Below are positions 12,395 through 18,773 of a stretch of DNA of 40,095 bases, in pieces. Positions within the stretch are counted from its first letter, which is position 1. Each line of letters opens with the position of its first letter. The stretch covers positions 1-40,095 of the forward strand of contig CAMWWJ010000001.1 in NCBI GenBank assembly GCA_947177925.1. The letters are read 5' to 3'. The notes below the pieces were generated by a model that was not told the DNA's origin, searched no databases, and saw only the letters and a program-made list of their open reading frames with translations. The position numbers were made by a program, and so were the translations under genes. This DNA is from an uncultured Lachnospiraceae bacterium. Its GTDB lineage: Bacteria > Bacillota > Clostridia > Lachnospirales > Lachnospiraceae.

Positions 12395-13267
12395 ATGAGC
12401 AATACATATCAGGACTTGCAAAACTCCCATCCGTGTTTTGGCGGTCATAAAAATAATGTGGGACGGATTCATCTTCCGGTTAGTCCGGGATGTAACATTG
12501 CCTGCCGTTTTTGTGACAGGGTGATCAATGATGTGGAAGAACGGCCGGGAGTGACCTCGAAAGTGATAACGCCTGATGAAAGTCTGGAAGTTCTGGAAAA
12601 AGCTTTATCCATTTGTCCGGAAATCACAGTTGCCGGCATTGCGGGACCGGGAGATACACTTGCTACGGATTATGCCTTGGAGACTTTCCGGAAGGTAAAA
12701 GAAAAATTCCCGAAGCTCATCAAATGTATGAGCACAAACGGGCTGCTTTTGTATGAAAAGGCGGATGAAGTGATTGATATAGGAATTGACTCCCTGACGG
12801 TTACAGTGAATGCGGTAAAACCGGAGATCCTCGCAAAGCTGAATAAATACATTATTTATCATGGCAGAAGATATGAGGGCATAGAAGGGGCAGAAATTCT
12901 CATAGAGAATCAGTTAAAAGGCATCAAAAAAGTTGCGGCTGCCGGTATCACAATAAAGATAAATACGGTACTTGTTCCAGAAATTAATGGCGGGCATATA
13001 GAAGAAATTGCAAGAACCGTAAAAGAGGCAGGTGCAAGCATTTATAATATTATTCCCCTGATTCCGCAGTATGAACTGGCTGACCAGAAAGCACCTGTCT
13101 GTTCCCAGATTGATGAGGCAAGAACAAAAGCCTCTAAGTATATAGATGTATTCAGGCATTGCCAGCACTGCAGGGCCGATGCGGTGGGTGTTCCGGGAAA
13201 ATCGGAGTACGGTGATCAGATTTACCAAAGAAGATTAAATGTAAAGGAAACATTTTCGCATGGATAA
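12395..13267 (+). CDS. NifB-type radical SAM protein (catalytic domain only)
   Basis: HPCF...HLPVSPGCNIACRFCDR provides the CxxxCxxC motif. The C-terminal HCQHCRADAVGVPG resembles the NifB CRADAVG signature. Length is 290 aa. Confidence 0.8.
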   Translation: MSNTYQDLQNSHPCFGGHKNNVGRIHLPVSPGCNIACRFCDRVINDVEERPGVTSKVITPDESLEVLEKALSICPEITVAGIAGPGDTLATDYALETFRKVKEKFPKLIKCMSTNGLLLYEKADEVIDIGIDSLTVTVNAVKPEILAKLNKYIIYHGRRYEGIEGAEILIENQLKGIKKVAAAGITIKINTVLVPEINGGHIEEIARTVKEAGASIYNIIPLIPQYELADQKAPVCSQIDEARTKASKYIDVFRHCQHCRADAVGVPGKSEYGDQIYQRRLNVKETFSHG

Positions 13268-13640
13268 ATCCGCAAATAAACAATTAGAAGAAAGGGTATA
13301 TAAAGTGGCTGCTGCCTCTAGTGATGGAATTGTCATAAACCAGCATTTTGGAAGGGCGGATACATTTTATATATATGAAGTGGCGGGAGCAGGCAATTAT
13401 AGATTTCTTGAAACAAGAACAGTTACACCTGTATGTAACGGGGGGAATCACAGTGATAAGGAACTCCGTGATAATATCAGCAAATTCAAGGACTGCAAAT
13501 ACATATTAGTCAGCAGGATAGGAATGGGCGCTGCGAATATGGTGGAACAGTCCGGCATTACACCAATGGAGCTGCCGGGAATGATGGAAGAGTCACTGGA
13601 TAAGTTAATTACATATGAACAATTACAAAATTTATTTTGA
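13260..13640 (+). CDS. NifX/NafY/NifB-C-terminal-type small domain protein (dinitrogenase FeMo-cofactor-binding fold)
   Basis: VAAASSDGIVINQHFGRADTFYIYEV matches the family signature. It is translationally coupled to the upstream gene (ATGGATAA overlap). Confidence 0.7.
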   Translation: MDKSANKQLEERVYKVAAASSDGIVINQHFGRADTFYIYEVAGAGNYRFLETRTVTPVCNGGNHSDKELRDNISKFKDCKYILVSRIGMGAANMVEQSGITPMELPGMMEESLDKLITYEQLQNLF

Positions 13641-13655
13641 AAGGAAAAAAGAACA

Positions 13656-14504
13656 ATGGCAGAATTAAGACAAATTGCAATTTATGGAAAGGGTGGTATT
13701 GGAAAATCAACTACAACACAGAATCTGACGGCGGGGCTTGTGGAACACGGGAAAAAGGTCATGGTGGTAGGCTGTGATCCAAAAGCAGATTCTACAAGGC
13801 TTCTCCTTGGCGGCCTGGCACAGAAGACGGTTTTGGACACAATCAGGGATGAAGGCGAGGATATTGAGCTTGATCGAATTATGAGAGAAGGATATGGCGG
13901 AACAAGATGTGTGGAATCCGGCGGTCCGGAACCGGGAGTAGGCTGTGCAGGACGAGGCATTATCACATCTATTAATATGCTGGAAAATCTGGGTGCTTAT
14001 ACCGATGATTTAGACTATGTATTTTATGATGTTTTAGGTGATGTAGTCTGCGGTGGTTTTGCCATGCCAATCAGAGAGGGAAAGGCAAAGGAAATCTATA
14101 TCGTCGCTAGTGGCGAGATGATGGCACTATATGCAGCGAACAATATTGCAAAGGGTATTAAGCGGTATGCAAAGACTGGTGGTGTCAGACTTGGGGGAAT
14201 TATCTGCAACAGCAGAAATGTGGACAGGGAACTTGACCTTCTCCGTGCATTTGCCAAAGAACTCGGCACACAGCTTCTTTACTTTGTACCTCGTGACAAT
14301 ATTGTACAGAGAGCAGAGATTAATAAGAAGACAGTGATTGAATATAAGCCGGATTCTAATCAGGCGCAGGAGTACCGCAACCTTGCAGAGGCGGTCATCA
14401 ACAATACAAAATTTGATATTCCTACGCCGATGACACAGGAAAGGTTGGAAGAAATCCTGCTTGAGTTTGGATTGATGGATTCTGCAGATGATTACCGCAT
14501 TTAA
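13656..14504 (+). CDS. NifH-like ATPase / Fe-protein (nitrogenase-like reductase component)
   Basis: P-loop [17 protein letters not shown], and both cluster Cys motifs (GVGCAGRGI and VVCGGFAMP). Confidence 0.9.
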
Positions 14505-14519
14505 AACGGAGGAAAGACA

Positions 14520-17008: not shown

Positions 17009-17010
17009 AA

Positions 17011-18309
17011 ATGGCAAAATTATTAGATAAACAGAGATATAAATGTGCTTTGGGAGCAATGCAGACAGTACAGGCGATTACAAGGGCGATACCAATACTG
17101 CATTCCGGTCCCGGATGTGCGCAGAAATTATCGGATGGAACAGGGAGTTCTGGTTATTTCTCGCCAAATATTTTTCCATGTACCAGTATAAATGAGAAGG
17201 ATGTGGTATTCGGCGGCACAAAAAAACTGGAAACAACGATAGAAAATGCATTAAAAGTGATTGATGCAGATTTATATGTGGTGTTGACTGGCTGTATCCC
17301 AGAAATTGTAGGTGATGATACAGGCGAGGTGGTAAGCAGGTTTGAAGATGCAGATAAGCCTGTTATTTACGCATCTACAGCGGGATTTAAGGGAAATAAC
17401 TATATCGGACATGAGCAGGTGATTGATGCCATTATAGACCAGTATCTGGAAAAGTCTGAAGAAAAGGAAAAGGGTTTGGTCAATATCTGGGCGGACGTTC
17501 CTTATCAGGATTTATTCTGGCTTGGAAATATCAGGGAACTTGAGAAATTGCTTGCGGAAATTGGGCTTACGCCAAACACGATTTTTGGATATAACAGAGG
17601 AATCGATCAGATCAATAAAATCCCCAAGGCAGAGTTTAACCTGTTGGTTTCCCCATGGGTTTCTGTTGGGAATATGAAGAAAATGGAGAAAAAACTGGGA
17701 CTTCCATGGCTTCATCTTCCTACACTTCCTATTGGTGCATTTGAGACAAGTAAGTTTTTGCGTGAGGTTTCTAAATTTGCAGGAGTGGATGAGGAAAAGG
17801 TGGAAAGCGTCATAGATGGGCATGAGAATTATTATTACTATCTGATTGAAAGATACGCAGACCTTTTTCTTGAAAACCGTGTGATCAATAAGCAGTTTTC
17901 CGTTGTTGCGGATGCGCAGTATGCCCTCGGTATTACGAAGTTTTTAGCAAATGATCTGGGGCTTGTGCCTGCAAAACAGTTTATCGTGGATGATACGCCC
18001 AAACAGTACCGTGAGGCAATTGCAGAAGAATTTAAGAAGCTGAACTTTAACCTGCAGGCGGATGTCATATTTGAGACGGACAGCTATAAGATTCATGAAC
18101 AGATCAAGGAGCATGATTACCACGGATATCCGCTGATCCTTGGAAGCTATTATGAAAAGGAACTTACGGAAAGCCTGAAAGGAAATTACTTAAATATTGC
18201 ATGGCCGGTACAGGATAAAGTGGTACTGGATGATTTCTATGCAGGCTATACAGGAGGTATCCGTCTGATTGAAGATATTTATACTGTTGCCGTGCAGAGA
18301 TTTAATTAG
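17011..18309 (+). CDS. NifK/NifN-like beta subunit (pair 1)
   Basis: KCALGA, HSGPGC and LTGCIPEIVGDD match the NifK-type Cys positions. The gene starts 3 nt after the alpha subunit ORF. Confidence 0.85.
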   Translation: MAKLLDKQRYKCALGAMQTVQAITRAIPILHSGPGCAQKLSDGTGSSGYFSPNIFPCTSINEKDVVFGGTKKLETTIENALKVIDADLYVVLTGCIPEIVGDDTGEVVSRFEDADKPVIYASTAGFKGNNYIGHEQVIDAIIDQYLEKSEEKEKGLVNIWADVPYQDLFWLGNIRELEKLLAEIGLTPNTIFGYNRGIDQINKIPKAEFNLLVSPWVSVGNMKKMEKKLGLPWLHLPTLPIGAFETSKFLREVSKFAGVDEEKVESVIDGHENYYYYLIERYADLFLENRVINKQFSVVADAQYALGITKFLANDLGLVPAKQFIVDDTPKQYREAIAEEFKKLNFNLQADVIFETDSYKIHEQIKEHDYHGYPLILGSYYEKELTESLKGNYLNIAWPVQDKVVLDDFYAGYTGGIRLIEDIYTVAVQRFN

Positions 18310-18323
18310 CAGGAGGGTTTCAT

Positions 18324-18773
18324 ATGTCTTATAAGATAGCGGTTGCATCTTCGGATGGGCAGCAGATTGATGAGTCTTTTGGCTCTGCAAAAAGATTTAT
18401 TATATACGAAGTGACAGACGGTATATATAGAAGGCTGGAAGAAAGAGCTTTTTGTGAGGAAGGAACAGATAACAATGACGTATCTGTAGTGGATGGCTGC
18501 AATTCGTCGGTTAGCTGCAAAAATGAAGGTGGTTGTGGCAGCGGTACAGGAGGCGGATGTGGCGGCGCAGGGGAAGCGTCTGCAAAGGTAGATCTTGTAT
18601 CAGACTGCAGGTGTATTGTCTGTAAAAAGATTGGATTTCACATACAAAAACAATTGGAGCGAAAGGCTATTTCGGCTTTTGATGTTAGTGTCTCTGTGGA
18701 AGAGGCATTGGAAAAGATTTCACATTATTTTACCCGAATGGATAACCATGAGTCTTTACGGGTGCAGAAATAA
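18324..18773 (+). CDS. NifX-type domain protein with a Cys/Gly-rich insertion
   Basis: KIAVASSDGQQIDESFGSAKRFIIYEV signature plus the insert DGCNSSVSCKNEGGCGSGTGGGCGGAG and CRCIVC. Confidence 0.65.
   Translation: MSYKIAVASSDGQQIDESFGSAKRFIIYEVTDGIYRRLEERAFCEEGTDNNDVSVVDGCNSSVSCKNEGGCGSGTGGGCGGAGEASAKVDLVSDCRCIVCKKIGFHIQKQLERKAISAFDVSVSVEEALEKISHYFTRMDNHESLRVQK

Follow-up and report, generated by a model that had tools for sequence, protein, structure and literature searches.

The 40,095-nt stretch analysed here (hereafter the window), from contig CAMWWJ010000001.1 of an uncultured Lachnospiraceae bacterium, has a G+C content of ~41% and carries, among genes of cysteine metabolism, a seven-gene operon encoding a nitrogenase-like (NFL) system. 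Its closest relatives belong to the Lachnospiraceae, among them Dorea acetigenes and Lachnospiraceae bacterium 3-1; their D subunit is 98% identical. All seven open reading frames (ORFs) lie in the same orientation at 12395-18773, in the order B-X1-H-PLP-D-K-X2 (PLP denoting a pyridoxal phosphate enzyme), with gaps of -8, 15, 15, 14, 2 and 14 nt between successive genes from B to X2. Both this tight packing and the family of each product had been recognized in an initial, sequence-only reading of the window, and Pfam and NCBIfam domain calls agree with those assignments for all seven genes:

12395..13267, + strand: nflB, NifB-type radical SAM cofactor synthase comprising the radical SAM core only, 290 aa (Pfam/NCBIfam; match to NifB 7BI7)
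13260..13640, + strand: nflX1, NifX-type cofactor carrier (PF02579, 73 bits)
13656..14504, + strand: nflH, NifH-type Fe protein (ATP-dependent reductase) with Walker A, Cys97 and Cys132 (family match; identity to Clostridium pasteurianum NifH)
14520..15518, + strand: CysK1, non-canonical CysK-family PLP beta-replacement enzyme (scores short of the cutoffs for cysK and cysKM)
15533..17008, + strand: nflD (D1), catalytic alpha subunit (PF00148; Cys52/77/143, Cys255, Arg411-His412, Trp180, His360)
17011..18309, + strand: nflK (K1), beta subunit with P-cluster Cys12/36/95 (PF00148; match to MarK)
18324..18773, + strand: nflX2, second NifX-type protein, with a Cys/Gly-rich insertion (PF02579)

D and K fall in the PF00148 superfamily with 251 and 244 bits, and H scores 434 bits as a NifH-type Fe protein (Pfam). 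The insertion in X2 covers residues ~44-100 (CEEGTDNNDVSVVDGCNSSVSCKNEGGCGSGTGGGCGGAG...CRCIVC) and is absent from X1; X2 is the operon's least conserved gene, at 35-93% identity.

The closest characterized analogue of this operon is the methylthio-alkane reductase (MAR) of Rhodospirillum rubrum, MarBHDK, as the sequence-only reading had already proposed. D1 matches MarD with 311 bits and K1 matches MarK with 384 bits (PDB 9FMG/9D9U), at identities of 36% and 43% respectively, while the best match to a true nitrogenase NifDK reaches ~120 bits for D1 and ~82 bits for K1. Both subunits score far below the cutoffs of all nif, vnf, anf, nifE and nifN models, with D1 at 170 bits against nif-family cutoffs of 486-654 and K1 at 88 against 427 (NCBIfam), and with 157 against 505 (D1, NifE) and 41 against 327 (K1, nifN) for the scaffold equivalogs. 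An AlphaFold2 model of D1 built from a 65-sequence alignment (predicted local distance difference test, pLDDT, 88; predicted template modelling score, pTM, 0.89) superimposes on MarD (9FMG_A) with TM 0.90/0.94 at 2.0 Å (Foldseek), and on NifD, VnfD, AnfD or NifE with TM ~0.68-0.70 at 4-7 Å.

The metal ligands follow the same pattern. In MAR, the P-cluster is held by MarD Cys66/91/158 and MarK Cys32/56/121, and an [Fe8S9C] L-cluster-type cofactor is bound by MarD Cys270 and by His429 on the MAR-specific Loop I, with Arg428 alongside; MarD Trp195 is essential, and MarD His375 lies near belt sulfur S2B (PMC13474568, PMC12552129). Apart from His375, these are the residues that structures and mutagenesis have established as required in MAR. 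Sequence alignment places the whole of this set in D1 and K1. Cys52/77/143 of D1 correspond to MarD Cys66/91/158, and Cys12/36/95 of K1 (checked in K1 alone) to MarK Cys32/56/121. The cofactor ligands are Cys255 (MarD Cys270) and, on Loop I, Arg411-His412 (Arg428-His429), while Trp180 and His360 occupy the positions of MarD Trp195 and His375. Across 65 members of the wider D1 clade, none of these D-subunit positions varies. By manual alignment the sequence-only reading had located the three K cysteines, the NifD Cys275 equivalent (Cys255) and two of the D cysteines (Cys77 in GPAGC and Cys143 in SSCATG), all of which hold. Its first D ligand, Cys56 of SCALGQ, must be replaced by Cys52 (SSTC-LSS), which has the spacing to Cys77 (25) seen between MarD Cys66 and Cys91, an assignment with which the multiple alignment concurs; Cys56 instead falls at the MarD channel position Met70 and is at least 90% conserved within the D1 clade. 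Likewise, no His occurs at the His442-equivalent position, which is a Tyr, as had been noted, but the true MAR-type pair on Loop I, invariant across the clade, had been overlooked. We are confident that the enzyme has MAR-type architecture and MAR-type clusters.

The remaining core components are closer to nitrogenase. H is 80% identical to C. pasteurianum NifH (1CP2, 478 bits) and passes the NCBIfam nifH equivalog TIGR01287 (465.8 bits, cutoff 394.35), and it matches MarH with only 287 bits. The Fe protein of the operon is therefore not MarH-like but a near-canonical clostridial NifH (MarH being 47% identical to NifH; PMC13474568 / PMC12552129). B is most similar to the stand-alone NifB of M. 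thermautotrophicus (7BI7, 301 bits, 51% identity), contains the motif CNIACRFC and has no NifX domain. It falls below the equivalog model TIGR01290 (271 bits, cutoff 344) because that model takes in a C-terminal NifX domain, which here is encoded apart, as X1. To judge by sequence, then, the electron donor and cofactor synthase look like nitrogenase parts and the catalytic subunits like MAR.

Such an Fe protein, together with NifB- and NifX-type genes, would fit an operon for true N2 fixation, as reported for the Nfa system of Endomicrobium proavitum. Igai et al. (2016) found nifH transcripts 98% identical to NifH of Lachnospira multipara in human faeces with low N2-fixing activity, and argued that a missing His442 does not exclude fixation. 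However, D1 has no equivalent of NifD Gln191 or His195 (Trp180 and Phe184 stand there) in addition to the Tyr in the His442 loop, and it carries the Arg-His Loop I of MAR, an enzyme unable to reduce 15N2 (PMC12552129). The genes nifE, nifN, nifV and nifQ and the molybdate (mod) genes, noted as missing in the sequence-only reading, were indeed not found in the window, and the operon is set among cysteine genes preceded by a leader rich in Cys codons. In the rumen, moreover, N2 fixation is negligible although 23% of 501 genomes carry nifH (Greening et al. 2019). Membership of H among NifH sequences would not of itself make the operon a nitrogenase, and we regard N2 fixation by this system as very improbable.

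Related loci were collected with D1 peptide patterns, which gave 294 relatives in GTDB species-representative genomes, and the best 80, chosen by their D match, were analysed. These span Lachnospiraceae, Ruminococcus and other Oscillospiraceae, Butyrivibrio, Lachnospira, [Clostridium] polysaccharolyticum and Treponema, and include the cultured carriers L. multipara, Butyrivibrio, D. acetigenes, Lachnospiraceae bacterium 3-1, [Clostridium] polysaccharolyticum and Treponema sp. JC4; single protein clusters of the operon were found on ~1000 contigs. The order cysK0-(yezD)-(tRNA)-B-X1-H-PLP-D-K-X2 is retained nearly everywhere in the 80 species-level genomes, and D1K1 with B, X and H is complete in all 80 loci. 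Median identity to the window proteins across these loci is 95% for H, 89% for D, 88% for CysK0, 85% for K, 83% for B, 73% for PLP, 52% for X2 and 50% for X1. The range for D (87-98%) is biased upward because the loci were picked as the best D matches. Conservation differs gene by gene, which points to constraint, and recent horizontal transfer as the sole cause of the high D identity is ruled out by gene-specific medians extending from 95% (H) to 50% (X1). More distant loci of the D1 clade, in Geotalea, Sporomusa and Heliophilum, adjoin SsuA/NMT1-type transporters; the Geotalea locus has a sulfhydrylase-family PLP gene directly 5' of D, together with a NifX gene and a GNAT gene, and the Heliophilum locus has an added MacB-type gene.

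The gene between H and D is a CysK paralog of an unusual kind. CysK1 retains the PLP Lys (in SVKDR) together with the substrate loop TSGNTG and the phosphate loop GTGGT, and its best PDB matches are cysteine synthases (~267 bits). It scores below the NCBIfam cutoffs for cysK (318 against 351 bits) and cysKM (333 against 344), and contains two insertions as well as EGVPEER in place of QGIGAGF. Identity is 61% to the window's third CysK-family protein, CysK2, and 54.5% to the canonical CysK0; CysK1 and CysK2 form a subtype of their own. A non-canonical CysK paralog occupies the H-D slot in 64 of 69 loci, and four loci are without a PLP gene there. The slot paralogs fall into three subtypes, one of them (Treponema, some Clostridiales) ~44% identical, and all three carry insertions and a His-containing loop replacing QGIGAGF. 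That the slot is conserved rather than one sequence argues for functional coupling of the PLP enzyme. That the embedded CysK captures the product of the reductase, as had been proposed, is one of at least two candidate roles, another being to make the substrate.

We hypothesize that the operon encodes a two-component, ATP-dependent Group IV NFL enzyme of MAR type that cleaves C-S bonds reductively to acquire sulfur under anaerobic conditions and feeds it into cysteine synthesis, a role that we consider probable, though with considerable room for doubt. Sulfur scavenging rather than N2 fixation is most likely because the operon sits within cysteine metabolism, and there is precedent in the characterized relatives MAR, Mar2 and ISR, each of which works in the anaerobic assimilation of sulfur and is induced when sulfur is limiting. 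The identities of the components, the conserved ligands, the fold, the packing of the operon, the gene order and the sulfur context are all observed here and favour the hypothesis; from them we infer what kind of cofactor is bound, how electrons travel, that a C-S bond is cleaved and in what kind of substrate, what the PLP enzyme does and how the operon is regulated. In this scheme, B would build an [Fe8S9C] L-cluster-type cofactor that X1 and X2 would carry to D. H, with a [4Fe-4S] cluster on Cys97/Cys132, would hydrolyse ATP and pass electrons to the P-cluster (D Cys52/77/143, K Cys12/36/95), and from there they would reach the cofactor on D Cys255 and His412. At the cofactor, the C-S bond of an imported organosulfur compound would be cleaved reductively to a hydrocarbon-type product and sulfide or a thiol. 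CysK1 would couple this chemistry to O-acetylserine, for which the island encodes CysE and a canonical CysK, and so bring the sulfur into cysteine.

A number of observations weigh against this hypothesis, the first of which is phylogenetic. A scan of 1.84 billion representative proteins with D1 returned 124 clusters (50% identity) at E<1e-30, and the signature Trp195/Cys270/His375/Arg428 (MarD numbering) occurs only in D1, MarD and eleven representative clusters, with His429 also in nine. In a neighbour-joining distance tree of D subunits (100 bootstraps, unlabelled representatives), D1 lies outside the MarD clade (98% bootstrap) in a separate clade (97%), and the two are sisters whose union has 55% support. 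The nearest clusters within the D1 clade are 42-49% identical to D1, and its named members come from Geobacter/Geotalea, Polyangiaceae, Heliophilum fasciatum, Sporomusa, Pelosinus and Ruminiclostridium. Consistent with the sequence-only reading, neither this tree nor the family scores group D or K with NifDK or NifEN. Judged from sequence and model, D1 is similar to MAR in architecture but is not a MAR orthologue; its identity to MarD is only 36%.

The substrate channel and active site differ as well, with seven positions changed from MarD to D1: M70 to C56, C73 to G59, Y98 to A84, I101 to L87, H194 to I179, S196 to A181 and F374 to W359. In Rhodopseudomonas palustris, the substrate ranges of Mar1 and Mar2 differ via channel residues, and NflDK3, which is 52-56% identical to Mar1, is inactive on the Mar substrates tested (bioRxiv 10.64898/2026.08.20.746119). 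Because NflDK3 is closer to Mar than D1 is, C-S cleavage by D1 is an extrapolation. MAR converts DMS, EMS and methylthioethanol into methanethiol and a hydrocarbon; this substrate list is not transferable to D1, given its sister clade, its low identity, its different channel residues and the inactivity of NflDK3. The Fe protein is also nearer to that of true nitrogenase than to MarH, and the hairpin and T-run that separate yezD from the tRNA-like gene (see below) could insulate the operon from the promoter of the Cys leader. Sulfide is usually plentiful in the gut and rumen, so the need for ATP-costly sulfur scavenging is unclear.

The altered channel and the modified CysK paralog invite another explanation, in which the PLP enzyme acts first. 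CysK1 would condense O-acetylserine with an environmental thiol such as methanethiol to form S-alkyl-cysteine, and the NFL enzyme would then cleave the alkyl-S bond to give cysteine and a hydrocarbon such as methane. A non-canonical CysK with a remodelled active-site loop (EGVP or GFHGIH for QGIGAGF) sits in the H-D slot although a canonical CysK is encoded nearby upstream, which suggests a nucleophile other than sulfide. The smaller side chains in the D1 channel (Gly59 for Cys73, Ala84 for Tyr98, Cys56 for Met70) might fit a bulkier, amino-acid-like thioether, and MAR chemistry does cut methyl thioethers. On the other hand, the O-acetylhomoserine sulfhydrylase adjacent to MAR systems acts after the reductase, alkyl-S cleavage that leaves cysteine intact has not yet been reported for any NFL, and the four loci without a PLP gene between H and D would be difficult to accommodate. 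This order of events seems to us unlikely, although credible enough to be kept in view.

Beyond the operon, the window contains further genes of sulfur metabolism on both sides. One set comprises a LysR regulator, an enzyme of the cystathionine gamma-lyase family, a C-S lyase of PatB type and a Glu-Cys ligase, along with the canonical CysK and YezD. Further neighbours are another LysR, DUF4418, an ABC transporter of SsuA/TauT type, a second gene of CysK1 type, an ABC pair of MacB type and two GNATs, followed in our listing by a regulator of the Rrf2 family (CymR/IscR-like), a desulfurase of NifS/IscS type, CysE and a second D/K pair. The earlier view that all neighbours deal with sulfur is right for most genes between ~1.9 and 33.5 kb whose function can be assigned, but was slightly too broad: AzlCD, the MacB-type pair and the two GNATs show no sulfur link, and the window edges are unrelated. 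Three downstream features bear on the operon:

18844..19752, + strand: LysR-family regulator (CysB/CidR-like), directly 3' of nflX2 and downstream in several close loci too; start set at MTLNQL, where the hidden Markov model match begins
23309-24295, + strand: CysK2, third CysK-family gene, product 61% identical to CysK1 with the same insertions and loop
30280..33022, + strand: D2K2, second nitrogenase-like pair without its own H or B, downstream of Rrf2-NifS-CysE

DUF4418, the SsuA/TauT-type transporter and CysK2 form a second unit at 19969-24295 (+ strand), on the 5' side of which are a near-consensus promoter (19827-19855) and a hairpin (19907-19946). At 1904-5375 (+ strand), on the 5' side of the island, lie a ThiF-family gene, a gene for a rhodanese and PP-loop ATPase, and an ORF weakly similar to PP-loop/QueC; together these might make up a system for sulfur carriage or thiolation. 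AIR-carboxylase-family and PP-loop genes occupy 38455-40030 (+ strand), towards the other end of the window.

An SsuA/TauT-family transporter and a CysK1-type gene just downstream of the operon, with similar transporters flanking distant clade members, raise the question of whether the substrate might be a different sulfur or selenium compound. Candidates would be a sulfonate, S-sulfocysteine, thiosulfate, sulfite or polysulfide, reduced to sulfide or sulfite for cysteine. Sulfonates are the substrates of the Group IV-F enzyme ISR, and CysM-type paralogs use thiosulfate. The transporter matches are below family cutoffs, however, and D1 retains the L-cluster ligands that are absent from ISR in addition to being structurally Mar-like, so we hold a substrate of this kind to be decidedly unlikely.

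D2K2 is Mar-like overall (235 and 248 bits) and retains the P-cluster cysteines and the Cys270 equivalent, but is without the Loop I Arg-His pair, Trp195 and His375, and D2 groups in another clade (98% bootstrap with representative P0159). A NifEN-like identity for this pair is ruled out by its scores (D2 170 bits against the NifE cutoff of 505). With two D/K pairs sharing one H and one B in the window, and with Dos Santos et al. (2012) having raised scaffolding for genomes with several pairs, D1K1 might be imagined as a NifEN-like scaffold that matures the cofactor for D2K2, or the reverse. Yet D2K2 is near the main operon in only 21 of the 80 loci, and D1K1 is always complete with B, X and H. 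D1 has the full MAR catalytic signature and D2 does not, and both pairs are far below the NifE and NifN cutoffs. Such a division of labour strikes us as hardly credible.

Upstream of the operon is an array of features, all pointing towards it:

10613..10641, + strand: sigma-70-type consensus promoter TTGACA-17-TATAAT (12/12 matches), 5' of the cysK0 leader
10708..10803, + strand: leader-peptide ORF MKTNNMVTNRRNNNCCCCQTVYTNTVYFSCV, 31 codons with four consecutive Cys codons, candidate Cys-sensing attenuator
10831..10860, + strand: terminator-like hairpin and T-run closing the leader, 52 nt before the cysK0 ATG (sequence inspection)
10913..11866, + strand: cysK0, canonical O-acetylserine sulfhydrylase A (TIGR01139, 448.9 bits against 351), 5' of the operon in 57/80 loci
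11985..12143, + strand: YezD/DUF2292-family small ORF, 52 aa (PF10055, 62.5 bits), in 25 related loci
12152..12198, + strand: long hairpin (CCAGAGGT...ACCTCTGG) and T-run after yezD, conserved in alignment; possible partial terminator or processing/stability element
12224..12293, + strand: tRNA-Cys(GCA)-like gene directly preceding the operon, its discriminator base being A73 (Rfam)

The leader looks like an attenuator sensing the supply of Cys-tRNA. Its RNA folds with z = -3.7, and short ORFs with Cys runs (CCCC, CCCCC, CCxCCxC) precede cysK0 in ~14 of 53 related loci, including Treponema, with the remainder of the peptide varying. The leader has no match in Rfam, and riboswitch or T-box control of known families can be set aside: Rfam searches of the whole window and six related loci at the gathering threshold, and of 10400-12450 at E<=1, returned only the tRNA, with no T-box or SAM riboswitch. 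Because promoter, leader, hairpins and tRNA-like gene follow one another in sequence, the array, from the promoter through cysK0, yezD and the tRNA-like gene into the nfl operon, is probably one transcription unit with partial termination. Expression of nfl would probably be tied to cysteine limitation via the Cys-codon leader, the LysR-type regulators and the Rrf2 regulator. Between the tRNA-like gene and nflB (12294-12394, + strand), close relatives share an inverted repeat (GTAACG...ATTCAG / CTGAATCGTTAC) whose arms flank a weak promoter-like site; the repeat could be a regulator site or an RNA structure.

The tRNA-like gene starts 0-45 nt after the hairpin and in some loci ends ~30 nt before the ribosome-binding site of nflB. 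It is kept, co-oriented, in 28 of 63 related loci and is the sole tRNA in those ~20 kb stretches. Its stems show compensatory changes, some copies encode CCA, and all copies have A73 or G73, never U73 (for example at L002:6687-6756 and L030:6779-6851, in two of the related loci). U73 is a shared identity element of CysRS and SepRS (PMC8762117), and the product may be a poorly chargeable regulatory or processing tRNA. A literature search found no description of an operon-linked, non-U73 tRNA-Cys-like gene. It is tempting to speculate that these features together mark a new NFL function with CysK1 as obligate partner, turning an abundant gut thiol or thioether (for example methanethiol, S-methylcysteine or a similar compound from the diet) into cysteine and a hydrocarbon such as methane or ethylene, under a regulatory circuit not described before that joins the Cys leader to a non-U73, probably poorly chargeable, tRNA-Cys-like RNA. 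Animal guts would then have a source of hydrocarbons that is not archaeal. We offer this composite tentatively and think it unlikely.

The operon also bears on how nifH is counted in gut and rumen samples. In the human gut, Igai et al. (2016) detected 'Cluster III nifH' genes with 97-98% identity to NifH from L. multipara, Butyrivibrio and Lachnospiraceae bacterium 3-1, with transcripts for one of two types, and on this basis proposed Clostridiales as candidate gut nitrogen fixers. All three of these organisms carry the operon (loci L071, L064 and L007). Amplicon and metagenome surveys of nifH in gut and rumen would score it as a Cluster III diazotroph marker. It passes nifH-cluster filters, and probably nifHDK filters too, because H is so close to clostridial NifH and D and K are annotated as nitrogenase; it would also pass the pseudo-nifH filter of Mise et al. 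(2021), which removes only nifH without nearby nifDK. The operon is probably what lies behind the 'Cluster III nifH' of gut and rumen surveys, and reading these genes as a sulfur-salvage NFL system would resolve the mismatch between nifH and fixation. If C-S cleavage is indeed the reaction, methane, ethylene or other hydrocarbons could be produced by bacteria in animal guts through this enzyme, and nature would have a second use, apart from nitrogen fixation, for a carbide-containing Fe-S cofactor. Cultured carriers, a clear signature and conserved partner genes make this uncharacterized NFL clade open to experiment; a 2026 review names the functions of uncharacterized Group IV clades as the main challenge, with tractable hosts lacking, and describes the association of Group IV with sulfur as known but unresolved (PMC13474568).

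The kind of system is known. MAR (2020-2025), ISR (2024) and the R. palustris paralogs (2026) are Group IV enzymes in anaerobic sulfur assimilation. In R. rubrum, C. beijerinckii and Geobacter, Dos Santos et al. (2012) had found that a gene for cysteine synthase or O-acetylhomoserine sulfhydrylase commonly adjoins NifD-like genes retaining Cys275 (PMC3464626), and in R. palustris a NifX homolog has proved essential to a Mar system (bioRxiv 10.64898/2026.08.20.746119). The same preprint noted MarDK homologs in Bacillota. The genomic context is accordingly less new than first supposed. The clade itself is undescribed; it is marked by its own channel residues, an Fe protein of NifH type, a gene of CysK type fixed in the H-D slot, a pair of NifX genes and a very broad distribution among bacteria of animal guts. 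Our literature search found neither an experimental characterization of the Firmicutes/gut clade nor any report characterizing an arrangement with a sulfhydrylase between H and D, as the sequence-only reading had supposed.

Compared with MarBHDK (Group IV-C NFL), the operon shares the best D/K match, the ligands, Arg428 and Trp195, a B without a NifX domain, the lack of homocitrate or His442-type ligation, and a sulfur context with an adjacent PLP sulfhydrylase-type gene. It differs in the sequence distance, sister-clade position and seven channel and active-site changes described above, and in an H far closer to NifH (80%, against 47% for MarH). Its PLP partner is a fold-type II CysK paralog between H and D rather than an O-acetylhomoserine sulfhydrylase, there are two NifX-type genes inside the operon, and MarK Cys52 is Ser in K1. 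Relative to CysK and CysM themselves, CysK1 shares the catalytic Lys, the TSGNTG and GTGGT loops and the best PDB matches, and is set apart by its sub-cutoff scores, two insertions and altered loop. Mar1, Mar2 and NflDK3 of R. palustris (bioRxiv 10.64898/2026.08.20.746119) resemble the window in that several D/K paralogs share H and B amid sulfur genes, a NifX homolog is needed, and expression is induced by sulfur limitation. These systems, however, are proteobacterial, 52-65% identical among themselves and much closer to MarDK, without an embedded CysK-type gene, and all of the paralogs retain the Loop I His that D2 of the window is without.

IsrBHDK of Rhodobacter capsulatus (Group IV-F NFL) is similar in serving anaerobic sulfur assimilation and in lying near sulfonate/taurine ABC transporters, cysE and cysK. 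According to the review, IsrD is without L-cluster ligands and IsrB consists of a radical SAM domain only, whereas D1 has Cys255 and His412 and B is near NifB. The Nfa systems (Group IV-A) of E. proavitum and H. fasciatum, compared here by description, are likewise of BHDK type without NifEN and occur in anaerobes, some gut-associated; Nfa differs in supporting N2 fixation and in having an H that groups with MarH rather than NifH. The D1-clade member of H. fasciatum (P0318) differs from the nifH-linked NflDK1 of that organism. Lastly, the Mo-nitrogenase of C. pasteurianum has in common with the operon its NifB- and NifX-type genes, its closely similar H, the six P-cluster cysteines and the Cys275 equivalent, but D1 and K1 are far below the nitrogenase cutoffs, Gln191, His195 and His442 are missing along with nifEN and nifV, the context is one of cysteine metabolism, and the fold of D1 is nearer to that of MarD.

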